Origin: an uncultured Nitrososphaerota archaeon | GTDB taxonomy: Archaea > Korarchaeota > Korarchaeia > Korarchaeales > Korarchaeaceae | Assembly (NCBI GenBank): GCA_964618805.1 | Contig: CAZUBM010000002.1 | Location: 1-55,312, forward strand | DNA length: 55,312 bases | Reading direction: 5' to 3' | In this document: one piece after another, positions 29,776 to 55,312 of the stretch | Position numbering within the stretch: the stretch's first letter is position 1 | How the letters are laid out: every line of letters begins with the position of its first letter | Made by a program: the position numbers and the translations under genes | Notes under the pieces: generated by a model | Told to the model about the DNA's origin: nothing | Seen by the model: the letters and a program-made list of their open reading frames with translations, nothing else | Database searches by the model: none

Positions 29776-29810
29776 CCCTAAGGCAGGGGAAGCATCATGG
29801 AGCTTTAAGG

Positions 29811-31229: not shown

Positions 31230-31280
31230 CTTTATGAACACACAACGTTTATAGGGAAAACTTTACCGGGCAAACTTGGA

Positions 31281-32717: not shown

Positions 32718-32737
32718 ATTAAAACAAATACCTTTAG

Positions 32738-33562: not shown

Positions 33563-33609
33563 CGTCCATTAGAGGAAAGGATTTATAGATAGGGTCCCAG
33601 AAATTTCCG

Positions 33610-34740: not shown

Positions 34741-34823
34741 ACCTTGAAAAAAGAGTTGGTCTTGGGTTCAAATCATTTCTTTTCAATCATGATTAAATAT
34801 GATATATCTAATATAGACACAAG

Positions 34824-35285: not shown

Positions 35286-35365
35286 TTCTTTCACTTTATT
35301 TAGTAGCCGGTGGAGAAATTGGTGGAGCCAGGTTCCAGCCAAGCTAGAAGCTAAGGGGATACGTT

Positions 35366-36112
35366 ATGGAAAAGGTCTTTACTAAAGAGGCACTCTCGGT
35401 TATCTTGATCCTAGCAGCCATAATTGTAAAATCCTTCTCCAGGGCTTATCCAAGGCAGGAATTTGGTATTTTGCTGATCTACTTTACATTGTACCTATCA
35501 GCAATAATTACAGCATCTTTAACCTTCTGGAATAATGCATGGATCCTTTTGCTGTCAGGAGCTTTAATAGGCTCTATTTCAGAGTTCATCGGGACTAGAA
35601 CAGGGGTGCCATTTGGCCTTTATTATTATCAAGAGTTGAAGCCTCAAGTTTTTGGAGTTCCTGTGCTCGTGCCTATTGCATGGGGGACCTTCTTGTTCCT
35701 ATCTTATTTAACTGCAAGCTCCATGTTTAGAGGATTTAAAGCAGTTCTAATGGCTTCAACTCTCATGGTAATAATTGATTTGGCATTAGATCCAGTAATG
35801 ACCAGCTGGAAAGCTTGGGTTTGGGTGACTAAGACTGATGTTAACTGGTATGGAATACCTTGGACCAACTACCTAGGATGGTTTGTGGTTTCACTCATAT
35901 CCCTCATGTCATATGGATTTGCGGCTAGGAAGTTGGAGTTTAAAGAAACTAGAGCGTTAAAAGCCATGCCTGGTCTCTATTTACTTGAGATGTTCATCTT
36001 TTATGCCTTGGCAGCACAGGAAACTGCTGAACCAACTCTCTATGCCCTGCTGGTAGCCATAATAGCTATTGTGGCCGGCTTAGCACTCCGCTCTTACGAA
36101 AAGAAAAGATAG
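35366..36112 (+). CDS. DUF422/CruF-like membrane protein (carotenoid hydratase family)
   Basis: E.IG.RTG.PFG.Y.Y...GVP..VP.AW...D...DP...W.W...GIP..NYLGW. Confidence 0.8.
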   Translation: MEKVFTKEALSVILILAAIIVKSFSRAYPRQEFGILLIYFTLYLSAIITASLTFWNNAWILLLSGALIGSISEFIGTRTGVPFGLYYYQELKPQVFGVPVLVPIAWGTFLFLSYLTASSMFRGFKAVLMASTLMVIIDLALDPVMTSWKAWVWVTKTDVNWYGIPWTNYLGWFVVSLISLMSYGFAARKLEFKETRALKAMPGLYLLEMFIFYALAAQETAEPTLYALLVAIIAIVAGLALRSYEKKR

Positions 36113-36328
36113 AAAGTCATTCTTGTAAATCATGTTGGAACATATTTAAACGCCTCTTCTACCTCTTCTCGGCTTTTCCTCATAGAGACCTTAAACAAAA
36201 GAGACTTCATATAAAGATAAGAAATTTTCTGGGCTGAATGTTAGAAAAGAGTCATGCTATGGCGCTTAGCTAGGTCTTAAGAAAGTAACTTTTTACCCTT
36301 TCTAACGCTCTTGCTGAGTGATTGTCAC

Positions 36329-38182
36329 ATGACTGAAGGAGTTATCGGTATCTTGGGAGGAATGGGTCCAGAGGCCACAGCTGAATTATTTTACAGGATA
36401 ATAAAGGCGACTCCAGCAAGAAAGGACCAAGATCACCTCAGGATCATAATAGATAATAACCCTAAAATACCCGATAGGACGGCAGCGATACTCCATCAAG
36501 GGCCCAGTCCTCTTCCGATGATGATCGAGACAGCTAGAAATCTTGAAAGGGCTGGAGCTAGCTTTTTGATAATTCCATGCAACACTTCACACTATTACAT
36601 CAACGAGTTACGGAAGGAAATTGAAATTCCAATAGTAAACATGATAGAGTTAACCGCGTTAAAGCTCAAAAACATGAATTTCAGAAGAATAGGACTTCTT
36701 GCAACCACTGGGACGATAAAAACAAGACTTTATCAGGATGCGTTGATGAAAGAGGGAATGAAGGCAATAATACCCCCCGAAGACCTTCAAAATGAGGTGA
36801 TGAGTGCAATATATGATTACATTAAGGCAGGGAACCTTAAGACCGGAAGAAAAATTGTACTCAGAGTAGCAAAAGAGCTAATTAAAAATGGAGCGGAAGC
36901 AATCCTCTGTGGATGTACGGAGATTTCTCTCGTCCTTAAGGAAGGAGATCTTTCTGTTCCTGTAATAGATCCTCTTGAACTCTTAGCAAAAGAGGCAGTT
37001 AAACTGGCCTTTGAATTTGGCGAAACAAGTAGGAAAGTACTTTCTTCCAGAGTTAGGAGAATAAAGGAATCAGCTACTATGAAGACTTTAGAGAAAGCAA
37101 GGGAAGTGGAAAAGAGAGGCGTCAAGGTTATTTACCTGAGCATAGGTGAACCTGATTTTAATACCCCAGAAAACGTGATTAAGGCTGCATTTGATGCTAT
37201 GAAGAGAGGCTTCACCCACTATACAACCAGTCAAGGAATTTTAGAGCTTAGAGAAGCAATCTCAGAGAAGTTTAAAGAGGAAAACGGTTTGGATTTTAGC
37301 CTCGATAGCATAATCGTGACTCCTGGGTCAAAATATGCGATATTTGAAGCCGTCATGGCTTTAGTAGATGATGGAGATGAGGTAATCGTCCCATCTCCGT
37401 ACTGGGTGAGTTACGAGGAGATAGTTAAGGCTGCTGGAGGAATATTGAGAGTCGTTCCAACCAGAAAGAACTTCACCCTAGAAGTTGATAGGATTAGGGA
37501 TGCTATAAGTCCGAGAACTAAGGCGTTAATCATAAATTCACCAAACAACCCAACTGGGGCAGTATATGACGAGAAGTCCCTAAAAGAGTTGGCTGAAATC
37601 CTAAGCGAGAGAAAAATATACGTTATATCAGATGAAATCTACGAGAAGCTGATCTATGAGGGTAAGCATGTAAGCATTGCTTCGATGGATGGGATGGAGG
37701 AACTAGCAATCGTTGTAAACGGCTTTTCAAAGGCTTATGCGATGACGGGGTGGCGTCTAGGGTATGCGGCAGGGCCAAAGGAGGTGATATCTGCCATGAA
37801 CAAGATCCAGCAACATTCAGTCTCATGTGCCCCAGCCTTTATTCAAAAAGCCGGTGTGGTTGCATTGAGATCGTCTCAAGAGTTTGTCAAAGAAATGGTT
37901 GAGGAATTTAGAAGGAGAAGAGACTATATAGTGAACAGGCTTTCTAGAAATTCATCGTTCGATGTTGTAAAGCCGAGAGGAGCATTTTATGTTTTCCCAA
38001 ACATATCCGGAACTGGGATGAGCTCATCTCAAATGGCTGACGTTATGCTGCAAAAAGCTGGCGTTCTGGTAACTCCAGGAAAGGCATTTGGTGGCTATGA
38101 TGATCACATAAGGATCTCATATGCTAACTCCCTTGAAAACATAAAAGAAGCGATGGATAGAATAGAGCAGCTCTTTGGATAG
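36329..38182 (+). CDS. Fusion of an Asp/Glu racemase and a class I/II PLP aminotransferase
   Basis: N-terminal GILGGMGP, PCNTSH, GCTE; C-terminal IGEPDF, INSPNNPTG, SDEIY, NGFSKAYAMTGWRLG; one continuous frame. Confidence 0.9.
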   Translation: MTEGVIGILGGMGPEATAELFYRIIKATPARKDQDHLRIIIDNNPKIPDRTAAILHQGPSPLPMMIETARNLERAGASFLIIPCNTSHYYINELRKEIEIPIVNMIELTALKLKNMNFRRIGLLATTGTIKTRLYQDALMKEGMKAIIPPEDLQNEVMSAIYDYIKAGNLKTGRKIVLRVAKELIKNGAEAILCGCTEISLVLKEGDLSVPVIDPLELLAKEAVKLAFEFGETSRKVLSSRVRRIKESATMKTLEKAREVEKRGVKVIYLSIGEPDFNTPENVIKAAFDAMKRGFTHYTTSQGILELREAISEKFKEENGLDFSLDSIIVTPGSKYAIFEAVMALVDDGDEVIVPSPYWVSYEEIVKAAGGILRVVPTRKNFTLEVDRIRDAISPRTKALIINSPNNPTGAVYDEKSLKELAEILSERKIYVISDEIYEKLIYEGKHVSIASMDGMEELAIVVNGFSKAYAMTGWRLGYAAGPKEVISAMNKIQQHSVSCAPAFIQKAGVVALRSSQEFVKEMVEEFRRRRDYIVNRLSRNSSFDVVKPRGAFYVFPNISGTGMSSSQMADVMLQKAGVLVTPGKAFGGYDDHIRISYANSLENIKEAMDRIEQLFG

Positions 38183-38334
38183 GAAGTTCATTTAAACTTA
38201 TTTCAAGCGTTTTCAATGGACGGTTGAAGTAAAGAGACTAGAGAGATGTTACATTAGTCCTTACAAACACTTACATCACTAAGCGAGTTATGAATCAATG
38301 AACTTATTTCTTACCCTTTTGGTAGATAATTGAG

Positions 38335-39513
38335 ATGTATGAGATAAGTCAAAAGGAATATGAATCCAGAAGGGAGAGGGTCAGAAGTGAGCTTTACAGG
38401 AGAGGATTAGATGTTCTAATCCTCTTCAGTCCATTGAGGATATTTTACCTGACTGGCTACCACTTGCTTTCCACAGAAAGGCCTCTAGCTATGATATTTC
38501 CGAAAGACGAAGATCCTATATTTTACGTCCCTAAGCTCGAGGAAGATCACGTGAAGTACAGAGTTCCATGGGTAAGAAGGGTTTTCACCTACTTTGAGTA
38601 TCCAGGAACCGAGCATCCGCTTAAGCGCTTTGTAGAAGTCTTGAAAGAAGAAAAGATAGCGGAAAAGAGGATAGGAGTTGATTCAGATGGCTATTTGGGC
38701 AAATATGGGTACAAGGGTCCAGCCTTAAGCGAATTGCTAGGCAAGGAGGTCAAAAGGGTCCCTGAAATAGTGGATGACATGAGACTTGTGAAGTCCCAGG
38801 AGGAGATCTCCTTGCTTAGGGAGAGCGCTAAGTGGTGCACCCTAGCCTTAAGATACTTGCAAGAATACTCAGTTCCAGGCACATCCGAGGTTGAGGCATC
38901 CATGCTTGCTTCTATAGATGCTTCTAGTGCCATGATAAGGGCATTAGGCCAAGCAACTTTTGCATGGATCCCTCCTGCAAAGGCTTACTTCAGGGGCCAG
39001 GTGGGTAAACTATCATACTACCCTCACATGATGTACAACAATGTCTTGATCAAGGAAGGAGATGTGGTAATTGGAGAGGCATCTGCATACGTTGGAGGAT
39101 ACAGTGCTGAACTCGAGAGGACTATGATAGTTGGTTCTCCAAGCGAAGAACAAAAGAAGTACTTTAAAGCAATGATTAGAGCAAGGGAGGAAGCTCTTAA
39201 GGAATACAAACCCGGAAACCCTTGTTATGCACCCAATAGAGCTGCATTTAAGGTTTTCAGGGAAGAAGGTTTGCTTGAAATGGCTTTACATAGGACCGGA
39301 CACGGAATAGGGCTTGAGGGTCATGAGCCTCCCTGGATCGAGGAGGGAGATTCGACGGAGATGAAACCTGGCATGGTGTTCAGCTGCGAGCCAGGGATAT
39401 ATGTGCCTGGTTTAGGAGGTTTCAGACACTCAGACACTGTTGTAATTACCGAAGATGGGGCTGAAATGTTGACTAGCTATCCCACAGAGCTTGAAGAACT
39501 GATAATAAGGTGA
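38335..39513 (+). CDS. M24 (Xaa-Pro peptidase/creatinase) family hydrolase
   Basis: Creatinase-like N-domain, RLVKS.EEI, HRTGHGIGLEGHE, SCEPG, FRHSD. Confidence 0.88.
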   Translation: MYEISQKEYESRRERVRSELYRRGLDVLILFSPLRIFYLTGYHLLSTERPLAMIFPKDEDPIFYVPKLEEDHVKYRVPWVRRVFTYFEYPGTEHPLKRFVEVLKEEKIAEKRIGVDSDGYLGKYGYKGPALSELLGKEVKRVPEIVDDMRLVKSQEEISLLRESAKWCTLALRYLQEYSVPGTSEVEASMLASIDASSAMIRALGQATFAWIPPAKAYFRGQVGKLSYYPHMMYNNVLIKEGDVVIGEASAYVGGYSAELERTMIVGSPSEEQKKYFKAMIRAREEALKEYKPGNPCYAPNRAAFKVFREEGLLEMALHRTGHGIGLEGHEPPWIEEGDSTEMKPGMVFSCEPGIYVPGLGGFRHSDTVVITEDGAEMLTSYPTELEELIIR

Positions 39514-39578
39514 CCTATCCTAAAACATTCCTTAGCTCATGTTTAAACGGTTTCCTACCTCGATTAATTTGAATTGAT

Positions 39579-40778
39579 ATGTTCTCCTCACAAGAAATTG
39601 AGAAGATAAGGGCTGATTTCCCCGTACTTAAAGAAGTCGTTCATCTGGCTGCAGCAGCCACTTCTCCAATGCCATTATCTACAATAAAAGCGATTCAAGA
39701 GGGATTTAACAGAATCTATTTAAAATGGGACTGGTCTTGGGCAAAGGAAGTTGAGAAAGAATGTAAAAAAGCCATCAGCAGGCTAATAAACTCTGAATTA
39801 GATGAGATAGCGCTTATAAGAAGTACTACTGAGGGGATAAACGCCGTAGCTTCAGGAATATCTTGGAAGAAAGGCGATAACGTGGTTATAGATGACCTAG
39901 AATATCCTGCAAATGTAATTCCATGGTACCACCAAGCCAAGAGGCACGGGATAGAGGTAAGGATAGTGAGAAATGTAGGGGGATTTCTGAATACAGAGGC
40001 CTTTAGCGAGTCCATCGACAAGAACACAAGAGTTGTGGCTGTTAGCCATGTCCAGTTCGTTAACGGCTTCAGAGTAGATCTAAAGGAGCTTTCAAAGATG
40101 GCTCATGAGGTAGGCGCCCTCCTCTTTGTCGATGCCATACAGTCGTTAGGAGCAGTTAAGGTTGATGTTAGGGAATTAGGGATAGATGCTATGTCAGCAG
40201 GAGGCTATAAGTGGCTTTGCGGTCCTGCTGATACCGGCCTTCTATTTGTTAGAAGGGAAATAATGGAGGAGATAAGTCCTTCCTATATAGGATTTGAGAG
40301 TATAGACGATGAAGAGGAGAAGAAGCTCTGGGCAGATGTTGTCACAGGTCTAAGCTATGTTAAAGGGTACAAAAGTCTTTCAAAGACTGCAAAAAAGTTT
40401 GAGTATGGGTCCAGAAGTCATGCTTTGATTGCTGGCTTAAAGTCCTCCGTTGAGTATCTGTTAACCATAGGGATCGAGAGGATAGAGGATAGGATAGCTG
40501 AGCTAGTAGGCTATCTTCTCAAGAGATTAAATGAGGAAGGATATCGCACAATAACGCCAATAGAGAGGAAGTACAGGGCAGGGATCGTGAACTTCAACCC
40601 AGGGATAGATCTGAAGAAGGAGGAAGAAGCTGAAAAGCTTGTCTCCAAGCTTAGAGAGAAAAGAATCGTAGTAAGTGTGAGAGGAGGGGGGATAAGAGCA
40701 TGTTGTCACTTCTTCAACAAAGCTGAGGACGTAGATAAGCTTCTTGAAGCTATTAAAGCAATTATTAAGAGATCTTGA
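39579..40778 (+). CDS. Class V PLP-dependent enzyme
   Basis: STTEG, EYPAN, VDAIQSLG, GGYKWLCGP, HFFN..EDVD. Confidence 0.88.
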   Translation: MFSSQEIEKIRADFPVLKEVVHLAAAATSPMPLSTIKAIQEGFNRIYLKWDWSWAKEVEKECKKAISRLINSELDEIALIRSTTEGINAVASGISWKKGDNVVIDDLEYPANVIPWYHQAKRHGIEVRIVRNVGGFLNTEAFSESIDKNTRVVAVSHVQFVNGFRVDLKELSKMAHEVGALLFVDAIQSLGAVKVDVRELGIDAMSAGGYKWLCGPADTGLLFVRREIMEEISPSYIGFESIDDEEEKKLWADVVTGLSYVKGYKSLSKTAKKFEYGSRSHALIAGLKSSVEYLLTIGIERIEDRIAELVGYLLKRLNEEGYRTITPIERKYRAGIVNFNPGIDLKKEEEAEKLVSKLREKRIVVSVRGGGIRACCHFFNKAEDVDKLLEAIKAIIKRS

Positions 40779-40831
40779 GCTGAGAATTGAGGATCTTCAT
40801 ATACTCAAAGCTCAAGACACAGCTCCTATCC

Positions 40832-42406
40832 CTAATGCTTTAGAACTCTTCCTGGCAACTTTCCCGTATGTTCTCCTTTCTCAACAACCAATTCTCCATT
40901 AACAATTACGTACTCAATGCCCTTAGGATACTGATGTGGTTTCATGTAAGTTGCCCTGTCTATTATGGATCTTGGATCAAATATCACTATGTCTGCAGCC
41001 ATTCCTTCCCTTATTATGCCTCTGTCCTTTAGGCCAAGCTTGTTTGCAGGAAGTGATGTCATCTTCCTAACTGCTTCCTCTAAGATCAGCAATTTCTCCT
41101 CCCTGACATACCTTCCTAATATTCTTGGGAAGGTTCCATAGCTTCTTGGATGCGCAACTCCCTTAGCAAGGATGCCTTCAGGTTTCAAAGCATATCCATC
41201 GGTTCCAACCATCACCCATGGTTTAGTCATTATCTTCCTCACGTTTTCCTCAGATTGGTTGAAGTTAACTATACCTACTCCTTTTTTCTCCATAGCAGCA
41301 ATCTCTACAAGCTTTATTGCAGCATCTATAACGGACATTCCCATTTCTTTAGCGACTTCTGCGAGGGTTTTTCCTTCAAAACTCGGATTTGGTTCAAATC
41401 TGGAGATCAGAGCATTTTCTCCCCCTCCTCTTACCTCTATTACCTCTGCTAGCTCTTCTTTTATCTTTTCTCTTATCTCTGGATCCTTTAACCTCTCAAC
41501 AAGCTTCTCATATCCGCCTTCCTTTGCCCATTTCGGTATCCAAGCCATTAATGAAGTCCCACTTGCCCTATATGGATACTGATCTGCATTTACATTTACC
41601 CCCTCCCTTCTTGCGTTTTCGATTATTCCCAACATCTCGTCGCAAAGGTTCCAAAGGGGCCTTGCTAAGATCTTTAAGTGAGAGATCTCAACCGAGACTC
41701 CGGATTCTCTCCCTATCCTTATGGCCTCTTCGATCGCCTCGATTAACCTTCCACCATCTCCTTCGTCCCTTATGTGTGATGTATAGATTCCTCCTCTTCC
41801 TGCTACAACCTTTGCAAGCTCTATGATCTCTTCCGTCTTTGCATATGATTGTGGAACGTATCTCAAGCCTGTTGACATGCCAACAGCCCCTTCATCCAAC
41901 GATCTTGCGATAAGAGATTTCATTTCATTCATTTCTTCTTTTTTTGGCTCCCTAGCTTCATATCCCATTACGCTAAGTCTAACTGTTCCAAATCCGACAA
42001 GAGCAGCGACATTTATTGATATCCCATTTCTCTTAAGCCTTTCTAAATATTCGCCCATATAAGTCCAATCAACCCTTAGCTCATACCTCTCAGCAATCCT
42101 TTCAGCCTCCTCCCTAGCTTCTCCAAGAATTGGAGCCGCTGATTGTCCACAATTCCCTATAACTTCTGTTGTAACTCCTTGCCTTACCTTGCTATCTGCA
42201 AATGGGTTTACTAAGAGCGTGTAGTCAGAATGTCCATGCATGTCAATAAAACCAGGTGAAACGACGAGATTCGAGGCATCGATTTTAATCTCAGCACTTT
42301 TCTCTTTTATTTCTCCAACAAGTGCAATTTTTCCGTTCTCTATGTAGAGATCTCCAACGAAACCTGGTCTTCCTGTTCCATCAACTATAACTCCATTTTT
42401 TATCAA
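40832..42406 (-). CDS. N-acyl-D-amino-acid deacylase (D-aminoacylase family)
   Basis: PGFIDMHGHSD, GNCG, SHIRDE, ISHLK, DQYPY, HPRSYGTFPR. Confidence 0.92.
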   Translation of the reverse strand: MIKNGVIVDGTGRPGFVGDLYIENGKIALVGEIKEKSAEIKIDASNLVVSPGFIDMHGHSDYTLLVNPFADSKVRQGVTTEVIGNCGQSAAPILGEAREEAERIAERYELRVDWTYMGEYLERLKRNGISINVAALVGFGTVRLSVMGYEAREPKKEEMNEMKSLIARSLDEGAVGMSTGLRYVPQSYAKTEEIIELAKVVAGRGGIYTSHIRDEGDGGRLIEAIEEAIRIGRESGVSVEISHLKILARPLWNLCDEMLGIIENARREGVNVNADQYPYRASGTSLMAWIPKWAKEGGYEKLVERLKDPEIREKIKEELAEVIEVRGGGENALISRFEPNPSFEGKTLAEVAKEMGMSVIDAAIKLVEIAAMEKKGVGIVNFNQSEENVRKIMTKPWVMVGTDGYALKPEGILAKGVAHPRSYGTFPRILGRYVREEKLLILEEAVRKMTSLPANKLGLKDRGIIREGMAADIVIFDPRSIIDRATYMKPHQYPKGIEYVIVNGELVVEKGEHTGKLPGRVLKH

Positions 42407-42947: not shown

Positions 42948-43370
42948 TCATTTATTCTTTTTTGGTCCTGCAAAAATTATATTGTACAATTTTTTCAGTT
43001 GGGGAACTAAAGTTCCTATGATGCTCCCAACGAAGACGCATAACATGATAGCGAGGGTTACTCCTAAGGATCTTTTTGCTGAGGAAGGAAATATTACGAG
43101 CATTAGGATCAAGATTGCACCAGTTCCGACCTTTATTCCCTCAAAGAGAGGTCTTCCAGATGACCTCTTAACTATCATGTACGAGGCTATTGCTCCTCCA
43201 AGAGCATAGACAAAAAAGGAAAGGAGCACGATTATACTCATAGTTTTTTCAGAAAATTGCGGAAGTTTCCGTAATAATATTCCCCAAATCCAAACAAAAA
43301 CTCCTGCAAGTGTAGACGCTGCCATATAATCGTAAAAAGTTGGACGCCTTTCTTCACTCAATTCGAACAA
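42948..43370 (-). CDS. Small four-TM membrane protein
   Basis: Four hydrophobic helices with GG motifs; divergent from the GlmL-like gene. Confidence 0.7.
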   Translation of the reverse strand: MFELSEERRPTFYDYMAASTLAGVFVWIWGILLRKLPQFSEKTMSIIVLLSFFVYALGGAIASYMIVKRSSGRPLFEGIKVGTGAILILMLVIFPSSAKRSLGVTLAIMLCVFVGSIIGTLVPQLKKLYNIIFAGPKKNK

Positions 43371-43435
43371 GCTAGCTTGTTTTCATTCAATAAAAATTTT
43401 TATAGGTAATATCATAGGTTAAATGGGAATTTCTA

Positions 43436-45301
43436 ATGCCCAAAACTCCTCTAGATGAGATGAAATTTATTCTTGCAACAGATGTGGGGAGTACGACTAC
43501 GAAGGCCAGATTCTTTAAGAGGACTGAAAATGGATGGAGGTACGTGATCAGCGGAGAGGCTCCAACAACAGTTGAGAAGCCATATGAGGATGTTACTCTT
43601 GGCGTAAGAAATGCTGTCAGGGAAGTAGAGGAACTAACTGGCCATAAATTGCTTTCTCCAGATGGTAGAGGAATTTTGATGCCATCAAGGAGTAATGAAG
43701 GAGTAGATCTCTACGTTACTACTAGTAGCGCTGGAGGAGGACTCCAGATGATGGTAGCAGGCCTTATAAGAAGCATGACTGCAGAAAGCGCTGAGAGAGC
43801 TGCGCTTGGTGCTGGAGCGATCGTAATGGATGTCATAGCAATAGATGACGGGAGGGAGATTTATCAGAAAATCGAGAGGATAAGACACCTAAGGCCAGAT
43901 ATGGTGCTCCTTGCGGGAGGGACCGATGGCGGGAACATAAAGGATGTCATCGAGATGTCCGAGATCCTAAAGGCAGCAAGGCCAAAACCGAGATTTGGAG
44001 TAACCTATAAGCTCCCAATTGTATATGCAGGAAATAAATTCGCTAGAGATCAAATTAAAGAACTTTTTGAGGAAGTCTTTGCGTTAACCATAGTCGATAA
44101 CATTAGACCTACGTTAGAGGAGGAGAATACGGAGCCTGCAAGGAGAGCAATACACGAGCTTTTCATGGAGCACGTTATGGCTCATGCTCCTGGATACGAT
44201 AAATTGATGAGGTGGACAGATGTTCCAATAATGCCAACTCCAGCAGGAGAAGGCATGATGATGCAACTTATCGCCAAAGTGTTCAACTGCAACACCCTGG
44301 GTGTTGGATTAGGAGGAGCAACGACTAACATTTACTCCATATACGATGGAAAGTTTGTCAGAAGCGTGAGCGCTAACCTTGGAATGAGCTACAGCATATG
44401 TAATGTCATGAAGGAAGCTGGAATAGAAAACATAATGAGATGGCTTCCATTTGAGAAGAGCGAAGATGACATAAGGAACAGGCTAAGGAACAAGATGATA
44501 AGGCCTACAACGATCCCTCAAACCCTCGAAGAACTCATGATAGAGCATGCGGTGGCTAGAGAAGCGATAAGATTAGGATTCAAGCACCATAAGACATTAG
44601 CTAGACCTCTAAGGGGAGCAAAAAGGAGAAGAGGTGCTCTATGGGAAGGAGCTGAGATCTCAGATATTTTTGCCGTTGAAGAGGTCTATGGAACCTACAT
44701 AAAGATGATGAATGTCAAGATAATAGCAGGAACGGGAGGTCTCCTGTCTCATGCTCCCAGGAGAGTTCAATCGATGCTCGTCTTAACCGATGGTTTCAGA
44801 CCAGAAGGCGTTACTAGGATGTTTCAAGATAGCGTTTTCATGATGCCTCACCTTGGCGTGCTATCAACAGTGTATCAGCAAGCTGCTTGGGAGATATTTG
44901 ACAAGGACTGTCTTGTAAGGCTTGGAACGCTAATTGCTCCGAAGGGGATAGCAAAACCTGGTGATAAAGTTTTGGACATCAAAATTGAGAAGCCGGATGG
45001 TATAGTGATTAAGGAAAGCGTTAACTTCGGCGAGATGAAGAGAATAGAACTTCCAGAGAGGGTTGAGGCGGATGCCTTCTTGGATCCAACGGGACATTTC
45101 GACCTTGGAGAGGGCCCTGGAAAGCCCGTTGAAACGAAGGTGTACGGAGGAGTGGTTGGGATAGTAATAGACGCCAGAGGAAGGCCTCTAAATCTTCCAG
45201 AGGATGGCAAGGAAAGGAGGAGAAAGTTGTTGGAGTGGTTCTATGCATTAGATGCATATCCGAAAGAGTTCCTTGATAGAATTAGGGAGGAATGGGCATG
45301 A
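43436..45301 (+). CDS. GlmL/MutL-like (glutamate mutase L family) ASKHA ATPase
   Basis: ATDVGSTTTK, APTTVE, TSSAGGGL, AALGAGA, LLAGGTDGGN, MPTP, GGATT, NLGMSYS. Confidence 0.88.
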   Translation: MPKTPLDEMKFILATDVGSTTTKARFFKRTENGWRYVISGEAPTTVEKPYEDVTLGVRNAVREVEELTGHKLLSPDGRGILMPSRSNEGVDLYVTTSSAGGGLQMMVAGLIRSMTAESAERAALGAGAIVMDVIAIDDGREIYQKIERIRHLRPDMVLLAGGTDGGNIKDVIEMSEILKAARPKPRFGVTYKLPIVYAGNKFARDQIKELFEEVFALTIVDNIRPTLEEENTEPARRAIHELFMEHVMAHAPGYDKLMRWTDVPIMPTPAGEGMMMQLIAKVFNCNTLGVGLGGATTNIYSIYDGKFVRSVSANLGMSYSICNVMKEAGIENIMRWLPFEKSEDDIRNRLRNKMIRPTTIPQTLEELMIEHAVAREAIRLGFKHHKTLARPLRGAKRRRGALWEGAEISDIFAVEEVYGTYIKMMNVKIIAGTGGLLSHAPRRVQSMLVLTDGFRPEGVTRMFQDSVFMMPHLGVLSTVYQQAAWEIFDKDCLVRLGTLIAPKGIAKPGDKVLDIKIEKPDGIVIKESVNFGEMKRIELPERVEADAFLDPTGHFDLGEGPGKPVETKVYGGVVGIVIDARGRPLNLPEDGKERRRKLLEWFYALDAYPKEFLDRIREEWA

Positions 45302-46434
45302 AAGTGTCACAATCTTCATATGCTTACACTCCAGGTCTAAAGATAAAGAGAGTCACGGTTGTTAGAAAAGAGAGGAAGCTACCAATTCCAGGAGACGTTC
45401 TTGTTAATGAAGGTGATCAAGTTTCATTTGACACAATCGTTGCAAGGACTTTCGTTCCAGGAGATCCCTACCTAATTAAGGTCGCAAGAGAGCTTGGTCT
45501 ACCCCCCGAGGACATAAAGTTCTATCTACTGAAGAAAAAAGGGGATAGAGTAAAGGAAGGAGAAGTTATTGCAAGATACAGAACGCTTTTCGGTCTAATA
45601 AATAAAGAAGTTGTCTCTCCAACGAACGGAGTGGTAGAAGATGTATCAATGACCACTGGCAGGATTATAATAAGAGGAGATCCAAAGCCTGTGGAGCTGA
45701 CTGCATACGTAGCAGGAAAGGTAGCTAAAGTCTTGCCAGGAGAAGGTGTAATTGTAGAAACGAGAGGAGCATTCGTTCAGGGGATATTTGGAGTCGGAGG
45801 AGAGACTAATGGTGAGATTAGGGTTCTCGTCCATTCACCTAGCGATGTACTTGATGTCAACATGCTTGACGATGACTGTAGAGGAAAGATCGTGATAGGT
45901 GGATCGTTAATAACGAAGGAAGCTTTAGAAAGGGCAATAAGTCTGGGAGTTGGAGGAATTGTTGTTGGAGGAATTAAGGACACAGATCTAATGGATGTAG
46001 TTGGGTATGAGATAGGAGTTGCAATTACCGGTCATGAGGAAATAGGGCTCACCCTGATCATAACTGAAGGATTCGGAAAGATGGCGATGTCAAGAAAGGC
46101 TTTTGACATATTCAAGGAGTTTGAGGGGTACAGGGCAGCAATGAACGGAGCAACTCAGATAAGAGCTGGTGTAATCAGGCCCGAGGTAGTCATACCTCAT
46201 GAAAAGAAGATATCGGAGTCTGAGCTTCTTGAACTTGATAAGGGAATAAAGCCAGGAACCATCGTTAGGATAATAAGGGAGCCATTCTTCGGAGAGATAG
46301 GAAAAGTCGTTAGCCTTCCGGTGGAACTTCAACTCATAGAAACCGAGTCAAAGGTAAGGGTTGCAGAAATAGAACTGGAAGATGGAAGGAGGGTTGTGGT
46401 CCCAAGGGCTAATTTAGAAATAATCGAGGAATGA
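45292..46434 (+). CDS. Uncharacterised partner of the GlmL-like protein (hybrid-barrel-like repeats, C-terminal KOW-like motif)
   Basis: Overlaps the GlmL stop; V.EGD.V and VKEGEVIA...SPTNGVV; QGIFGVGG; GVAITG.E; TEGFG; TQIRAGVIRP; GTIVRIIREPFFGEIGKV. Confidence 0.8.
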   Translation: MGMKVSQSSYAYTPGLKIKRVTVVRKERKLPIPGDVLVNEGDQVSFDTIVARTFVPGDPYLIKVARELGLPPEDIKFYLLKKKGDRVKEGEVIARYRTLFGLINKEVVSPTNGVVEDVSMTTGRIIIRGDPKPVELTAYVAGKVAKVLPGEGVIVETRGAFVQGIFGVGGETNGEIRVLVHSPSDVLDVNMLDDDCRGKIVIGGSLITKEALERAISLGVGGIVVGGIKDTDLMDVVGYEIGVAITGHEEIGLTLIITEGFGKMAMSRKAFDIFKEFEGYRAAMNGATQIRAGVIRPEVVIPHEKKISESELLELDKGIKPGTIVRIIREPFFGEIGKVVSLPVELQLIETESKVRVAEIELEDGRRVVVPRANLEIIEE

Positions 46435-46438
46435 GTCC

Positions 46439-46759
46439 TTACTTCTTTTTCCTTTCTTTTTCATTTTCCTTCTCTTCTTTCATTAATTCTTCAATTTTTT
46501 TAATTATTTTTTCTACATTTTCTCTTTTTGACACCAGCATCAAGAGGTCAGTTCCTAACTGTCCCCATTTACCTAAGAGCGGTAGGATGGGAGAAAGGAA
46601 GAAGAGGCCAAGTTGACCCCCAATAAAGGAGAGGGGCTTATAGCTCTCTAGATAAAGTAGAGCTACTGTTCCAAATCCAGATCTTACAATTTCAGATGCT
46701 ATCTTATTAATCAAATCCTCCTCTTCTTCAGGAGTTAATTCTCTTGGGATCATGGACAA
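46439..46759 (-). CDS. Small hypothetical protein with an amphipathic/hydrophobic core
   Basis: LESYKPLSFIGGQL...RENVEK; charged termini. Confidence 0.75.
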   Translation of the reverse strand: MSMIPRELTPEEEEDLINKIASEIVRSGFGTVALLYLESYKPLSFIGGQLGLFFLSPILPLLGKWGQLGTDLLMLVSKRENVEKIIKKIEELMKEEKENEKERKKK

Positions 46760-46921
46760 CTTGTTAACCCTCTAAAAAGCTCTACGATTTATTCTAAAAT
46801 CTATTCGTGTGCATTGTTTTTTATGTGCTTAAAAATCTAACTCAAACATGATTTAAAGGGATAGTTCAAAATTTTAGTCACAAAGAGGACAAAACAAGGA
46901 TCCTACTATTGCTTCTCTCCT

Positions 46922-46953
46922 GAAAAGAAAAAAGAGGAAAAAGAAAGGGAAGG
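46922..46953 (-). terminator. Oligo-T/pyrimidine-rich archaeal terminator of the membrane operon
   Basis: Minus strand CCTTCCCTTTCTTTTTCCTCTTTTTTCTTTTC about 20 nt after the stop at 46971. Confidence 0.6.
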
Positions 46954-46970
46954 TTAGTGTGTTCTCTATT

Positions 46971-47591
46971 TCAGGCTATCCCAAGCCAGTCTCTTAGAAG
47001 GAACAACATCCTGCCTTGGTACTGTGAGAACCTTGTCATAACGGTATTTCCGAATGCAGCTCCGAATGCTAGAAGCATGCCCCACCTTCCTATCTTTGGC
47101 AGCCATGACATAGTGCCTACATGTACTTGTCTAACTGTGAAGATGAAGTGTGTAAGGCAGGTCAAGCAAAGGATGAATATTATTATGGAGTTTAATGTAC
47201 CAAGCGCGGTCTCTGCAACCAAGGGACCAGCAGTAGCAGCTATCTGTTTGATGAAGTCGGTATGAACCATCCCTCTCATGCTCAATCCTATACCTTGACC
47301 TACTAGAAATGCTATTCCGTACCTGTAAAGCCAATAGTACTTCGGATGATACCTGAAGTACAAGAGAACCCCTAGGATAAATGGAACTATGTAAATGGCC
47401 TCTCCTCCAACCAAGTGAGACCATCCATATTTCTTGACGTTTTCAAATCCCATTACTACAGCATGCCCAGCTGCAACCCCAATGAAGGTGTACTCAGCGA
47501 ACTTGAATATTATGTTGTCCTTGAAAACATAACTAGTAGCAGCAATCGTATAGAAAGCAGCAATCCAAACCGAAATATCAGTTGACACCAT
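46971..47591 (-). CDS. Uncharacterised polytopic membrane protein (operon gene 4)
   Basis: About 6 TM; KDN..F..AE...IG...GH; AFGAAFGNTVMTR; GGAGGT RBS. Confidence 0.85.
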   Translation of the reverse strand: MVSTDISVWIAAFYTIAATSYVFKDNIIFKFAEYTFIGVAAGHAVVMGFENVKKYGWSHLVGGEAIYIVPFILGVLLYFRYHPKYYWLYRYGIAFLVGQGIGLSMRGMVHTDFIKQIAATAGPLVAETALGTLNSIIIFILCLTCLTHFIFTVRQVHVGTMSWLPKIGRWGMLLAFGAAFGNTVMTRFSQYQGRMLFLLRDWLGIA

Positions 47592-47593
47592 TC

Positions 47594-48430
47594 TTATTTA
47601 CCTCCCTCCTTACCTCTAGTTGCAAAATATGCTATGTTTCCAAGAATAACCAGTATTAGAACCCATGTCTGGGTCAAATTCAATATGTCCGTCGTCTTCA
47701 TGGCATCTCCAGGCTGACCTATCAAGTACTCATACTCTGCTGCCCCTCTTATACCATCCAACATTCCTGCAAGCGCTCCTGCATCGTAATACGGCTTCAT
47801 AGATGGAGTCATCATGCTAAGCCATCCACCACATGTTACCTTCTTGTACCTGCTGTACGCCTGATAAACCCAGCCCTCAGAAGTCTCTCCAGCGGTAGTT
47901 AGGTATGCGACCACGTCTATGTCATCTGCACCTCTTATGTTTGCCATCATTGGAAGGGTGCCAATTGGGTTCCCAAAGTGATCCACTGGAGCTGCAGCAT
48001 GAAGATCTCCAAGCACAGCAGCCATAGCTGTTTGAACACCAGCTATATATCCCAAGAAAACGTAATCTTCCCCATACTTCGCGCCATAAACCTCTTCTGG
48101 CTTAACTTCATCCATTATCAGCGGGTAAATTACGCATCCCTCTTGTGAAGTTGCCATGAGCACTACTTTGAGGTCTTTTGAGAAGCAATGCCTTAGAATT
48201 GCGATTGTTGCGGGACCCAACGTCGGGTACCCGCCCGATCCAAACCCTATGTCGAATAGAACAACATCTCCTGGCTTTAGCTGATCTATAGCATTGTAGT
48301 AGTCCTTTGTAGACTCAGATACAACTATTGGCAGCCCAAGCGGATGAAGCAACGGAATTGCCATGAATATAACCACTAGCGTCATTACGAACCATCTAGG
48401 AAGGGCCCCAACCTTTGCTACTGCAGACAT
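47594..48430 (-). CDS. Uncharacterised membrane protein with a central soluble domain (operon gene 3)
   Basis: N-terminal TM; YGEDYVFLGY, PYY.AG...G.L.G.RGAAEYE; C-terminal TM; GGAGGTGA RBS. Confidence 0.85.
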   Translation of the reverse strand: MSAVAKVGALPRWFVMTLVVIFMAIPLLHPLGLPIVVSESTKDYYNAIDQLKPGDVVLFDIGFGSGGYPTLGPATIAILRHCFSKDLKVVLMATSQEGCVIYPLIMDEVKPEEVYGAKYGEDYVFLGYIAGVQTAMAAVLGDLHAAAPVDHFGNPIGTLPMMANIRGADDIDVVAYLTTAGETSEGWVYQAYSRYKKVTCGGWLSMMTPSMKPYYDAGALAGMLDGIRGAAEYEYLIGQPGDAMKTTDILNLTQTWVLILVILGNIAYFATRGKEGGK

Positions 48431-48438
48431 CTTTTATT

Positions 48439-49065
48439 TCACCTCCTCCCGAGATATCCGGTCTCCATGCCCAGCAAAGTTCTGATTCCTAGGACTATTG
48501 AACCTATTCCTACTCCTATCCTTATTCCTCTGTAGGATCCGCTAACTATGACATCAAAGATCCATTTTCTCCATGAGAAGAAGCCTTTCCATATGGCTGG
48601 GAACAGAGGAGTGTTTCCAAGAATCACTAAGAATGCAGTAATTAGTAGAAGAGTTGAATCCAATGTCCTTGCTTTAAGAACCTTGTAAGCGCCCGCTGTC
48701 ATGTAGAAGCACAGAGATGCATACATTGTGGCTCCTAGAGGCAGATAAACTGAGTTGTAAATCCATAGGTATTGATCGCTTGCTGAAGAAAGCGAAACTC
48801 CTACAACAGCTGTAACTATAAGTAGAAAGAGGAGCCAAGCGCTAAATGCCCTGTCAACCATGCTAGGAGCCCTTTTTATACGTCTTCCATAAACTATAAA
48901 GAGGTTAACAGCCCCGAAACCTAGAGCGAAGGCGGATATAACTATTCCCCAGTTCTTTAGGACGGTGAAGGCGTTCTCTGTCGTAGGAACTGGGATGTAG
49001 TACTCTAAAACTGCAATCAAACCGCTCAGGAACGTTATCAAAAGGGGAATTTCTCTCTTATACAT
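48439..49065 (-). CDS. Uncharacterised polytopic membrane protein (operon gene 2)
   Basis: About 6 TM; RGIRIGVGIG...RTLLG.E; GAGGTGA RBS. Confidence 0.85.
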   Translation of the reverse strand: MYKREIPLLITFLSGLIAVLEYYIPVPTTENAFTVLKNWGIVISAFALGFGAVNLFIVYGRRIKRAPSMVDRAFSAWLLFLLIVTAVVGVSLSSASDQYLWIYNSVYLPLGATMYASLCFYMTAGAYKVLKARTLDSTLLLITAFLVILGNTPLFPAIWKGFFSWRKWIFDVIVSGSYRGIRIGVGIGSIVLGIRTLLGMETGYLGRR

Positions 49066-49077
49066 TTACATCTCACC

Positions 49078-49863
49078 TCACTTACTTAGAAGTTCAACTA
49101 CAGTTTTGATGCCAGCAGTTGAAAGTATCGCTCCAATTACGGATATGACGATGGCAGCTAGCTTGTAGACATCCTGAGAGAAGAGGCTTCCGATCTTCAC
49201 TGGATCCTTGCTTAGATATGCGTCTGCGGCAAACATTTCCTCTCCAATCAATACATAATCAGCTACTGCTGCGAAGAAAGGCAATTGATAGAGTCTTGCG
49301 GTTCCAGCAACCTGGTAGGCACCTACCCTTGCAAATGATTCAGCAAACATCATGCTCTCAGCCCAGAATGGGCCTACCATTATGTTTGCTGCTGGCTTTA
49401 GCCTTGCGCACATACCTATTATACCGCTTGCCCAAGCAAATTGGGTTCCTGAAAGGTATGGTAGCTGCTCATCAACATCTAGTTCCTCTAACTTGCCAGC
49501 CTCAGCATATGCTTGTCTTACAGTTTCGATGGCAACGGGCATGACATCCACAGAAGCCTGTGGAGCAATAAGTCTAGCACCTTTTTCAGCACAGTGCCTT
49601 GCTACATAACTTAGAACTGATAGCCCTGCGATCGTTTGGGGTGCATAAACATCTGTGAATGTACCCATACCTATTATGTCAAAAACGGGCCTTCCCATCT
49701 CTACTGCTCTTCCAACGGCCTCTTCGATTTTGTCAAGCCCAGGAATTCTTCTTACGCTAAATTTTCCTTTTTTCCCATAGGATATTGATATTAGTGTGAT
49801 GATCCATATTAGTATAAGGGTGATCAGGGCTGTGAGTCTTCCTTCCGCTATCAACCACACCAT
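49078..49863 (-). CDS. DUF6754-like membrane protein (operon gene 1)
   Basis: VRRIPGLDKIEEAVGRAVEMGRP, FWAES, QVAGT, QLPFF...DY.LIGEE; family name recalled from motif, not searched; GGAGG RBS. Confidence 0.8.
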   Translation of the reverse strand: MVWLIAEGRLTALITLILIWIITLISISYGKKGKFSVRRIPGLDKIEEAVGRAVEMGRPVFDIIGMGTFTDVYAPQTIAGLSVLSYVARHCAEKGARLIAPQASVDVMPVAIETVRQAYAEAGKLEELDVDEQLPYLSGTQFAWASGIIGMCARLKPAANIMVGPFWAESMMFAESFARVGAYQVAGTARLYQLPFFAAVADYVLIGEEMFAADAYLSKDPVKIGSLFSQDVYKLAAIVISVIGAILSTAGIKTVVELLSK

Positions 49864-49962
49864 TATTCTTGTCCCTCCTTATTCGCTATTTGTATGGCAA
49901 AAACTGCGATTTATTTAATATAAGTTTTATCAAATGTTATCAAAGTTTATAAGGGTTCGATC

Positions 49963-50385
49963 ATGACATCCGACGATTTCATGAGAGATCCTACATTAGA
50001 GGAGTATGTGGGTGGAGCTTCCGTTAGTTTTGGTTTAGTTACTCTTGTTCTTCAGATCTTAGGAGGAATAATCTCGTACAAGGGACTTGAGGAAAAATTG
50101 TACTTGTACGATCCTTTAATTGCCCTGATACTTTACTTAGCACTTCATATAGTTAGTGGATGGCTAGGTGCATATCTCGTAACGAGAAGGATACAAAATA
50201 CCCGTATTAGGCTAGTTAGAGCAGGACTACTTACTGGATTGGGGGCATACATAATTGAAGCCATAGTAACCCTAATATTCGTTCGCAGCTTTCCGCAGTC
50301 TGCTTGGGCCTTAATAGGTTTCGTATTTGGTGGATCTCTTGGAGGGATGACCTCGAGCATATTCCCTTCTAAAGCACGATTGTGA
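49963..50385 (+). CDS. Small four-TM membrane protein
   Basis: Four hydrophobic helices; divergent from the membrane operon; resembles 42948-43370. Confidence 0.75.
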   Translation: MTSDDFMRDPTLEEYVGGASVSFGLVTLVLQILGGIISYKGLEEKLYLYDPLIALILYLALHIVSGWLGAYLVTRRIQNTRIRLVRAGLLTGLGAYIIEAIVTLIFVRSFPQSAWALIGFVFGGSLGGMTSSIFPSKARL

Positions 50386-53150: not shown

Positions 53151-54299
53151 TCAAAGTAAGTACTTTAAGCCGGAGCCCGTATTCATCAGAAGAATCCTGT
53201 CGTCCATGGAGAGGATTCCATCATTAACGAGTTTCTTTAGTCCTGCATACGTAGCAGCCCCTTCTGGACAAGCATATATGCCTTCATACCTTGCGAGATC
53301 CTTGATAGCGTTCAAAATCTCCTCATCTGTTACGCTAATAGCAAATCCATTGCTATCCCTCAGTACCTTTAGTATCAACTTGCCTGCGAATGGCCTGGGA
53401 ACTTTTAGGCCAGCAGCAATTGTCTTCGGATTTTTCCATTCTTCAACTTCTTCTTTGCCTTCTTTAAAGGCCCTGACAACCGGAGCACAGCCAGAAGCCT
53501 GCACTGATATCATCTTTGGGATCTCACCGCTTATCCAACCAAGCTCCTTAAGCTCTTGGAAGGCCTTCCATATACCAATTAGACCAGTTCCGCCACCCGT
53601 TGGGTATATCACTACGTCAGGCAGTTCCCAGTTGAAGTACTCAGCTATCTCCAGTCCCATCGTCTTCTTTCCCTCAAGCCTGTAGGGTTCCTTGAGCGTA
53701 GACATGTCAAACCAGCCTTGCTCTTTCGCCTTCGCCTTAGCTACCTTTCCAGCATCAGCTATCGTACCCTTTATAAGGTGGACATCAGCACCAGATACAA
53801 TGCATTCCCTCTTTGTAACATTAGGAGAATCCTCTGGCATGAAAACATGGGCTTTTATCCCTGCCTTGGCGCAATAAAAGGATAGAGCAGCAGCAGCGTT
53901 CCCAGCAGATGGCAAAACTATGTCTTTTATGCCAAAAGTTTTTGCCTTTGAGACGGCTACGGCCATTCCTCTTGCCTTGAACGTGCCTGTTGGGTTCAGC
54001 GACTCGTCTTTTATCCAGAGGCTCCTGAAACCCAGGTTGCTTGCTCTCAAGATTGGAGTAAACCCCTCGCCAAGGGTAATAATATCTCTTCTATCTTCTA
54101 TCGGAAGGAACTCAAAGTACCTCCATAAAGTTCCTTCTCTCCCTAAGAGATCTCCTTTTTTCAGCTTATCCTTCATCTCTTCCAGATTATACTTCACTAG
54201 AAGAGTGCTACCACAATTCTTACACACTGTCTGTATCTCCTTGTGGGAGTGTTGAGCTCCACAGTTACTGCACTCAAGCCTCTCAACAAACATGATCAA
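53151..54299 (-). CDS. thrC: Threonine synthase-like fold-type II PLP enzyme
   Basis: N-terminal CxxC...CxxC, LWRY, TLGEG.TP, NPTGTFKARG, SAGNA, PTGGGTG, NTGSGLKY. Confidence 0.8.
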   Translation of the reverse strand: MIMFVERLECSNCGAQHSHKEIQTVCKNCGSTLLVKYNLEEMKDKLKKGDLLGREGTLWRYFEFLPIEDRRDIITLGEGFTPILRASNLGFRSLWIKDESLNPTGTFKARGMAVAVSKAKTFGIKDIVLPSAGNAAAALSFYCAKAGIKAHVFMPEDSPNVTKRECIVSGADVHLIKGTIADAGKVAKAKAKEQGWFDMSTLKEPYRLEGKKTMGLEIAEYFNWELPDVVIYPTGGGTGLIGIWKAFQELKELGWISGEIPKMISVQASGCAPVVRAFKEGKEEVEEWKNPKTIAAGLKVPRPFAGKLILKVLRDSNGFAISVTDEEILNAIKDLARYEGIYACPEGAATYAGLKKLVNDGILSMDDRILLMNTGSGLKYLL

Positions 54300-54310
54300 T
54301 CCTCTCTATT

Positions 54311-55312
54311 TCACCTCATTACCTTTGAGAAAACCGTCAAATGATTTTCTCCAAGGATTTTCTTGATCTCTTCTTTGCTGTATCCCCTAGAAACGAGTTC
54401 TATAGTTATGTTGGGCATCTTGCTTACGTCTTCTAAGCCAATTGGAGTTGAGGATATTCCATCAAAGTCAGAACCTAAGCCAACGTGATCAATTCCCACC
54501 AAATTAATTATGTGCTCCATATGATCTACAACATCGCTTACTGAGGCCCTACCTTCCCTTTTCAAGAACTTAGGGTAGAAGTTCATCCCGATAACCCCTC
54601 CTTTATCTGCTATTGCCTGTATTTGTTTGTCAGTTAAGTTCCTAGGATGATCGCAGAGGGCTCTGCAGTTGGAGTGGGAAGCTATTATTGGAGAATCGGT
54701 TATTTCAACCAAATCCCAGAAGCACGATTCGCTTAGATGAGAGACGTCTATCACAATCCCCAGCTTTTCCATTTCCTCAACAACTCTTACACCCAGGTTA
54801 GTCAGCCCGCTTCTAGTTCTCTCCTCCTTGACCCCATCAGCCAAGTGGTTCCTGTAGTTCCAAGTTAGGCTCATCATTCTGATACCGAGCCTATGTAGGA
54901 TCCTTAACATCGAAACATCTGCTTCTAGGGCTTCTCCTCCCTCTAAAGAGAGCATAGCAGCTATCTTACCTGATTCAATTGTTCTAAGGATCTCATCATA
55001 CGATAATGCCGGCGAAATCTCATCCTTGTTCTTTTCGCATTCTTCATAGAACGTATCTACCATGTTTAATGCTCTATGAAGAGGCTTTGGTGGATCAGGA
55101 ACTTTGGAAACGAAGATAGCAAATACTTGGCAGTCAACCCCTCCTTCTCTCAACCTAGGGATGTCAACATGTCCCTTCTCTGACCTCTTTCCAAGACCTT
55201 CCTCCACTCTGAGAGGAGTAATTGGTGGAAATATATCTGCAAACAAGGCCTGGAGGGTATCACAGTGAGTATCTACCACGTGACACCTTTTATGCAGGAT
55301 TATAGCTTCATC
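54311..55312 (-). CDS. M19 membrane/renal dipeptidase family, partial at the right edge
   Basis: VDTHCD, SLEG, SLTWN, IDVSHLS, ASHSN, RN.TD, GLGSDFDG; the frame is open to base 55312. Confidence 0.92.
   Translation of the reverse strand, partial: DEAIILHKRCHVVDTHCDTLQALFADIFPPITPLRVEEGLGKRSEKGHVDIPRLREGGVDCQVFAIFVSKVPDPPKPLHRALNMVDTFYEECEKNKDEISPALSYDEILRTIESGKIAAMLSLEGGEALEADVSMLRILHRLGIRMMSLTWNYRNHLADGVKEERTRSGLTNLGVRVVEEMEKLGIVIDVSHLSESCFWDLVEITDSPIIASHSNCRALCDHPRNLTDKQIQAIADKGGVIGMNFYPKFLKREGRASVSDVVDHMEHIINLVGIDHVGLGSDFDGISSTPIGLEDVSKMPNITIELVSRGYSKEEIKKILGENHLTVFSKVMR

Follow-up and report, generated by a model that had tools for sequence, protein, structure and literature searches.

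The locus at positions 42948-50385 of contig CAZUBM010000002.1 (assembly GCA_964618805.1, from an uncultured archaeon of the Korarchaeaceae) raises the question of what an ATPase of the MutL/GlmL family is doing beside an operon of membrane proteins. The accepted role of that family is to help vitamin B12-dependent enzymes, in a manner thought to be chaperone-like. The whole stretch of DNA analysed, hereafter the window, is 55,312 nucleotides (nt) long and belongs to a genome of 2.18 Mb in 62 contigs that is 93.7% complete. The locus holds nine open reading frames (ORFs), all intact and at the coordinates given by a first-pass annotation made from the sequence alone. Seven of the nine are our subject: G, an ATPase with the acetate and sugar kinase/Hsc70/actin (ASKHA) fold, its partner P, a small protein s, and four membrane proteins that we call the cassette (DUF6754, m208, m278 and m206). 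Comparison of sequences indicates that G-P and the membrane operon are conserved and co-inherited and do not track B12 mutases, and it is very probable that s-G-P and the cassette form one functional system.

Layout of the locus and recurrence of its parts

On the plus strand, G (621 residues, 43436-45301) is followed by the 380-residue ORF of P (45292-46434), and the two overlap: the ATG at 45298, the likely start of P, lies on the TGA stop of G to give ATGA, with GGGAGG ahead of it. On the minus strand the cassette operon spans 49863 to 46971 and encodes, in order, DUF6754 (subunit 1, 261 residues, 49078-49863), m208 (subunit 2, 208 residues, 48439-49065), m278 (subunit 3, 278 residues, 47594-48430) and m206 (subunit 4, 206 residues, 46971-47591). 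The intergenic gaps are 12, 8 and 2 nt, and each gene has GGAGG or GAGGTG 6-10 nt ahead of its ATG. An AT-rich divergent promoter region (49864-49962) separates the operon from a membrane gene on the other strand. After m206, the last cassette gene, comes a minus-strand spacer (46760-46970) that holds the upstream region of s and, at about 46900-46960, a terminator-like, T-rich run; s itself (106 residues, 46439-46759, minus strand) lies beyond the run. The stop of P and the stop of s on the opposite strand are 4 nt apart, so the G-P unit and the minus-strand unit converge. Scans of the window for tRNAs and Rfam families gave no match. The ORFs and the sequence agree with the first-pass annotation on the coupled 621/380-residue pair, the four tightly spaced membrane genes, their ribosome-binding sites, the T-run and the intactness of the genes. 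The 106-residue gene is present and intact as that annotation had it, but it was grouped there with the membrane genes, and it goes instead with the ATPase pair.

A DUF6754 profile confirmed at least 583 relatives in species-representative genomes, of which 80 loci were kept, and the gene order in these was determined by tblastn with the nine window proteins. The order DUF6754-m208-m278-m206 is whole and colinear in 75 of the 80, and the remaining five (L013, L022, L023, L034 and L073) stop at a contig edge; in 18 loci, two or three cassettes stand in tandem. The nearest homologues of the window's proteins are labelled Korarchaeota or Thermoproteota archaea. Archaeal loci carry the labels Bathyarchaeota, Methanomethylicia and Culexarchaeum, and bacterial ones Bacillota, Symbiobacterium, Zixibacteria, WOR-3, Eisenbacteria, Ignavibacteria, Cloacimonadota and others, with one locus labelled Symbiobacterium thermophilum, a cultured species. 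G and/or P lie within the fetched flank of the cassette in 25 of the 80 loci. On the cassette's own strand they are upstream in 15 and downstream in eight; in the other two they are on the opposite strand. In six loci (L029, L043, L055, L056, L066 and L071) the genes form an unbroken s-G-P-1-2-3-4 string. The only opposite-strand cases, L006 and L007, are close relatives of the window, and the convergent layout is peculiar to the window's archaeal genus. The recurrence of the same gene sets across phyla puts the arrangement far beyond chance. The first-pass annotation stated that similar clusters recur in diverse anaerobes with no assigned function, and this is borne out: the cassette is found in both bacteria and archaea, and a literature search for DUF6754, PF20539, PF13941 and GlmL/ASKHA, with subscription journals outside its coverage, found no paper.

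Neighbourhood analysis and phylogenetic profiling had both been proposed as checks on the link between the two units. The first places G and/or P beside the cassette in the 25 loci above, and the second finds P and DUF6754 together in three genome samples. The other 55 loci represent 50 genomes, and P is found at E≤1e-10 in 48 of these (not in G080 or G099), so that P accompanies the cassette in 73 of 75 genomes overall. Among 43 genomes of the window's phylum, DUF6754 occurs in four and P (E≤1e-200) in five, every one of them from the genus of the window; the fifth genome is 78% complete. In a sample of 201 Thermoproteota genomes, five have DUF6754 (in one case a fragment at a contig edge), and P is confined to four of these. 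In 195 genomes of a Bacillota class, DUF6754 and P (E≤1e-80) are each found in 75: 70 genomes have both, five DUF6754 only, five P only and 115 neither. As a control, peptidase M19 is present in 181 of the 195: the 75 genomes that have DUF6754 account for 72 of these, and the 120 others for 109; since it is spread across both groups, the match between P and DUF6754 is not a general property of Bacillota genomes. The pattern of co-occurrence thus repeats in three distant groups.

The two units differ in copy number. P is single-copy in archaeal genomes, against eight, seven and six copies of DUF6754 in G054, G180 and G298, respectively, and the closest cassette in G054 lies ∼81 kb from P. Many Bacillota genomes have at least 12 DUF6754 matches (first-look candidates number up to 34), compared with one or two of P. 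Between paralogues within a genome, the mean identity of DUF6754 is 54% (G327) and 45% (G054), and that of the other three subunits 35-42%; on these alignments the cassette paralogues of a genome are old, and DUF6754 is the most conserved cassette subunit.

The ATPase, its partner and the small protein

G matches the Pfam MutL family (PF13941) over residues 12-492 and profile positions 1-450 with E=3.5e-120 and 402.3 bits (gathering threshold 27). It scores below the cut-offs of the more specific models, with 220.2 bits against the equivalog cut-off of 475 for GlmL (NF040745), 218.4 against 600 for Or-4 (NF040744) and 155.9 against 204.05 for TIGR01319, and by these profile scores G is not a true GlmL. 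It has in common with GlmL and Or-4 the whole PF13941 domain and the nucleotide-binding motifs of the ASKHA fold. Residues D16, G18, G161, G162, D164, G166, G293-T297, G432, G434 and G435 do not vary across 21 sequences, and these glycines and aspartates are presumably the ASKHA phosphate and adenosine motifs. G is, however, ∼150 residues longer than GlmL and Or-4, with a conserved C-terminal extension of ∼130 residues past residue 490, and unlike them it is always found with P and is tied to the membrane cassette, not to a mutase. A PDB sequence profile search with G gave nothing significant.

The absence of a mutase or B12 gene nearby, remarked on in the first-pass annotation, extends further than the locus. 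The window's contig (C2) carries no match to the B12-binding family PF02310, the three matches in the genome lying on contigs C17 and C1, and Met_asp_mut_E (PF06368) has no match in the genome at its 93.7% completeness. The same annotation had named tracking with mutases as the outcome that would tell against a link to the membrane genes; what we find is that G-P follows the membrane cassette.

A sister genus carries a short MutL of 469 residues, 31% identical to G, that has neither the C-terminal extension nor a P. In L086 (7268-11482, minus strand) this protein is strung with an octopine-dehydrogenase-like protein and a 561-residue B12-binding-domain protein, from which it is one gene away, and the string adjoins an NrpR-like regulator. 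The short MutL adjoins glutamate mutase E in none of five genomes and, since Met_asp_mut_E was not found in the L086 genome, its B12 client there is not glutamate mutase.

P consists of an N-terminal barrel-sandwich-hybrid (BSH) domain, a glycine-rich centre and a C-terminal KOW-like domain. Residues 80-131 give weak matches to Biotin_lipoyl and RnfC_N (Biotin_lipoyl PF00364, 21.4 bits against a cut-off of 22.1). Across 30 members of the P family, Biotin_lipoyl is matched by 25, RnfC_N by 23 (best E=4.9e-8), NQRA_N (PF05896) by nine (best E=1.5e-5) and KOW by nine, and none matches a PEP-utiliser family in Pfam; an alignment of 30 sequences has 52 invariant columns, including glycine-rich central motifs. 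The carrier lysine of lipoyl and biotinyl domains is not kept, the turn position being N, K, S, R or H in the 30 sequences. The PDB profile search with P brought up Spt5 KOW alone, at a non-significant E=0.013, and hhalign found no relation of P to DUF6754 or m278.

Single ORFs in L100 (1148 residues), L101 (940 residues) and L102 (855 residues) begin with a MutL domain, and two of them also have P-like parts, seen as BSH hits in L100 and as a P match inside the ORF in L101. As far as sequence goes, these fusions support a physical association of G and P. The L100 fusion (1312-5931), from a Bacillota genome, is arranged head to head with a gene for ornithine cyclodeaminase. In five Bacillota and Symbiobacterium loci (L020, L035, L058, L059 and L072) a further, diverged pair of ATPase and partner stands between the cassette and s-G-P, its partner having an extra barrel-like segment of ∼90 residues inserted.

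Wherever G-P is found in bacteria, homologues of s lie directly upstream of G, and for this reason we count s as part of the ATPase module. It has a conserved hydrophobic core and a Lys/Glu-rich tail; E38, P42 and P57 are invariant in 15 sequences. Its single, weakly hydrophobic stretch (residues 45-63) includes charged residues that are conserved, and possibly does not cross the membrane. PilM-PilN, FtsA and MreB-RodZ offer a parallel, in that a small partner keeps the ASKHA protein at the membrane, and s could tether G likewise; the proteins of the present system have no sequence relation to these, and no filament function is implied.

The cassette proteins and the function of the system

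DUF6754 is the one cassette protein with a named family (PF20539, E=6.8e-76, 255.2 bits, gathering threshold 27); s, m208, m278 and m206 have no Pfam or NCBIfam match. It is made up of two membrane helices around a Rossmann-like domain of ∼210 residues, which is predicted to be cytoplasmic because lysine plus arginine counts are 0.8 ahead of helix 1 and 4.6 behind it (15 sequences). Diderm bacteria have a signal peptide and an extra domain in front of helix 1. In L043, L055, L056, L066, L032, L039 and L048 the extra domain comprises ∼100 residues with a conserved P-N-D-x-G ... W motif, and in other bacteria PQQ-type beta-propeller repeats are fused N-terminally to DUF6754. Both kinds of addition agree, at the level of sequence features, with an N-terminus outside the cell. 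Ten matches were seen among longer proteins, with only N-terminal beta-propeller or unassigned extensions and no fusion to G or P. The alignment of 16 DUF6754 sequences has 38 invariant columns, many of them acidic. The model has a mean predicted local distance difference test (pLDDT) of 70.2, falling under 50 in the most conserved stretch (169-207), and its best fold matches are VIA Z 8.1 (root-mean-square deviation, rmsd, 2.9; 121 residues aligned) and Foldseek E=0.032, none reaching E≤0.001 in Foldseek.

The third subunit, m278, likewise has a Rossmann-like alpha/beta domain of ∼210 residues between two membrane helices, modelled with a pLDDT of 93.8. Its positive-inside counts (2.85, 1.13, 1.26 and 2.87; 39 sequences) are the reverse of those of DUF6754, and the domain is therefore predicted to lie outside. 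The best fold match is VIA Z 11.2 to 1kjn (rmsd 3.2, 140 aligned), with RCK/KTN domains at Z 9.3-9.9 and a best Foldseek E of 4.1e-4 (TM 0.34). As modelled, both domains appear to be generic Rossmann-like folds without a specific match. The remaining subunits are polytopic, m208 with ∼5-6 helices by hydropathy. By hhalign, DUF6754 is unrelated to m278 and m208 to m206; PDB sequence profiles gave no relative for any of the four cassette proteins, and the ESM Atlas returned only clusters without names, the 30 neighbours of m208 all being 'hypothetical protein'. Among the nine proteins of the locus there is no ABC_tran or permease family at E≤0.1 (Pfam, NCBIfam), and PADLOC anti-phage models gave no family for the seven proteins at E≤0.01.

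We propose that the cassette would form a four-subunit integral membrane complex, with the DUF6754 domain inside, the m278 domain outside and m208 and m206 as its polytopic subunits, and that s, the ASKHA-fold ATPase G and the three-domain partner P would make up a cytoplasmic module. As there is one module (sometimes with a second, paralogous pair) against one to at least 12 diverged cassettes, we read s-G-P as shared by all of them, ATP binding and hydrolysis by G driving or gating each. The module would dock on the cassette, with DUF6754, as the best-conserved subunit, for its candidate site; a docking run of P with DUF6754 scored 0.00 (mark 0.32), which counts neither for nor against contact. 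The cassettes would be translocators for different small solutes, in the host organism probably nutrients derived from peptides or amino acids. The first-pass annotation had likewise suggested a membrane machine powered or gated by the ATPase, most plausibly an importer of amino acids or peptides, a proposal that the co-inheritance of the two units supports in part. Gene integrity, operon structure, synteny, linkage, co-occurrence, copy-number asymmetry, the motifs of G, the fusions and the predicted topology are computational results; a single complex of the four proteins, docking of the module, transport, its direction and the solute are what we infer. One module with many old cassettes, domains both outside and inside, and variable add-ons on the outside would fit a translocator family. 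That the cassette translocates solutes is close to an even call, if slightly on the lower side; the whole reading, function included, is held tentatively, and the suggestion that G supplies the energy or the gate more tentatively still. It is rather doubtful that the system is an unrecognised class of primary active transporter, in which one actin/Hsp70-fold ATPase module energises interchangeable four-subunit translocators.

Group II energy-coupling factor (ECF) transporters, TonB-ExbBD and the general phosphotransferase system (PTS) also use one module per genome to serve many scattered, diverged membrane units. The analogy is functional only, the seven proteins containing no P-loop ATPase, ExbB/ExbD or PTS family.

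Several observations weigh against a translocator. We know of no ASKHA ATPase that energises a transporter, and the nearest relatives of G are seen as helping B12 enzymes in a chaperone-like way. No cassette protein resembles a known transporter in Pfam, NCBIfam or PDB profiles, or in the fold search of DUF6754 and m278, and the generic Rossmann-like domains of the models would suit an enzyme or a regulator as well as a transporter. One part is present without the other in ten of the 195 Bacillota genomes, each of which is 80% complete or more, and the co-occurrence counts overstate the number of independent events because related genomes are not independent. The peptide context, strong in the window, is weakly enriched elsewhere: of 128 neighbours around the 80 loci, no more than five belong to the commonest family, Amidohydro_3, and in a set of 119 neighbours, from 13 cassettes of G327 and G054, the M20 family leads with five, where about two are expected by estimate since M20 is abundant in these genomes (22 and 17 copies). 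With neighbours elsewhere so heterogeneous, and five M20 against about two expected, the peptide theme is suggestive only.

Of the other explanations, the one that survives best, though we consider it unlikely, is that s-G-P would be a chaperone-like maintenance or assembly factor, which opens, repairs, loads with cofactor or assembles complexes that then work alone. It would be in keeping with the membership of G in the MutL/GlmL Pfam family and that family's role with B12 enzymes, with one module serving many cassettes, and with the short MutL of the sister genus lying one gene from a B12-binding-domain protein; the conserved stretch of DUF6754, of low confidence when modelled alone, may also need a partner or ligand. 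The reactivases of diol dehydratase (DdrA/DdrB) and ethanolamine ammonia-lyase (EutA) are comparable, in that an ASKHA ATPase and a dedicated non-ATPase partner act on another complex, but their clients are soluble B12 enzymes, whereas the only conserved candidate client here is a four-subunit membrane complex. Moreover, no cofactor-binding family is matched by any cassette protein in Pfam or NCBIfam, the B12-binding matches of the genome are on other contigs, and the tight coupling of s-G-P-1-2-3-4 in stoichiometric order in six loci is more typical of subunits than of a repair factor.

It is quite unlikely that the cassette instead senses signals at the surface, converts energy by translocating ions or works as a membrane enzyme, with G-P as its catalytic or regulatory cytoplasmic part. 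Both modelled domains are of the Rossmann-like kind common in nucleotide-binding enzymes and in RCK/KTN and USP regulators, the many acidic residues among the 38 invariant DUF6754 columns could be read in the same way, and the outside beta-propeller or Fn3-like N-terminal domains on some DUF6754 proteins would also suit a sensor. The first domain of P is like the barrel-sandwich-hybrid at the N-terminus of RnfC and NqrA (PF13375, PF05896), both of them peripheral subunits of membrane complexes. At the level of sequence the resemblance is limited to that barrel (RnfC_N/NQRA_N): no flavin or Fe-S family was matched by other parts of P, and neither the cassette proteins nor any other of the seven matched an Rnf/Nqr subunit, membrane subunits included, at E≤0.1. 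Neither is there an Fe-S, flavin or haem family or a signalling output domain in the seven proteins, and eight to at least 12 old paralogues per small genome would be unusual for a respiratory or biosynthetic complex.

That G-P is a soluble enzyme pair, for example a kinase or ligase, which acts on the imported compound and shares a pathway with the cassette without contact, we regard as distinctly improbable. The ASKHA fold takes in many small-molecule kinases, an active site could be built from the glycine-rich conserved motifs of P, some genomes have G-P at a distance from all their cassettes, and paralogous G-P pairs or fusions occur in other contexts, such as beside ornithine cyclodeaminase in L100. 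Against this, one pair would have to handle the products of many diverged cassettes, and both the near one-to-one presence and absence across distant phyla and the better conservation of DUF6754 among paralogues are easier to explain by direct contact. Finally, the strong PF13941 match of G and the opposite strands and separate promoters of the two units in the window would be in keeping with chance neighbours, with G an ordinary GlmL for a B12-dependent mutase encoded elsewhere, but the probability of this is almost negligible, given that Met_asp_mut_E was not found in a 93.7% complete genome, that G is far under the GlmL and Or-4 equivalog cut-offs and that linkage and co-occurrence hold across bacteria and archaea.

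If the proposed shared ATPase module and its translocators are borne out, they would represent an overlooked and ancient class of membrane machine, present in archaea and in monoderm and diderm bacteria. The system is abundant, with at least 583 relatives in species-representative genomes and at least 12 copies in some small genomes, and is routinely mislabelled 'glutamate mutase L' or 'hypothetical'. It would introduce a new principle of energy coupling in membrane transport, or at least a new type of client for chaperone-like ASKHA ATPases, and, for archaea that ferment peptides and for many bacterial phyla not yet cultured, a major route of nutrient uptake. Metabolic models of Bathyarchaeia, Korarchaeia, Methanomethylicia, Zixibacteria, WOR-3 and thermophilic Bacillota, where substrate uptake has so far been largely inferred, would have a large gap closed. 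Since one locus is labelled with the cultured Symbiobacterium thermophilum, the hypothesis is directly testable.

Neighbouring and flanking genes

Positions 22559-42406 and 53151-55279 of the window form a dense island of peptide and amino-acid catabolism. It includes three M20-like peptidases (22559-23983, 28345-29775 and 31152-32717), an M24 prolidase-like protein, an M19 dipeptidase, Amidohydro_3 and Aminotran_5 proteins, a PALP enzyme and two major facilitator superfamily transporters. A 623-residue ORF in the island (36311-38182, plus strand) fuses an Asp/Glu/hydantoin racemase (residues 15-229) to a class I/II aminotransferase (272-618), and could turn D-amino acids into keto acids in one protein. 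Neighbours that recur across the 80 loci include glycine-cleavage genes, an M20-like family and, in 10 loci, a TonB-dependent receptor family. The receptor of L043 (13843-16605), one of these ten, has 920 residues and a CarboxypepD_reg N-terminal domain, and in L043 and L045 the receptor gene is downstream of the cassette.

The two remaining ORFs of the locus encode DUF3792/TIGR04086-like membrane proteins of 140 residues each, paralogues of one another that bracket the system and whose membership in it is uncertain. The first (42948-43370, minus strand), a four-helix protein, matches PF12670 at E=1.2e-5 (25.9 bits against a cut-off of 31.3) and TIGR04086 at E=3.5e-6 (27.1 bits against 30); the second (49963-50385, plus strand) matches PF12670 at E=3.2e-4, under the cut-off. 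No homologue of either was found in the bacterial loci. Homologues of both are kept at the same places in the close relatives L006 and L007, and a homologue of the first lies near the cassette in the Bathyarchaeia loci L009 and L010, the second also having a homologue in L010.

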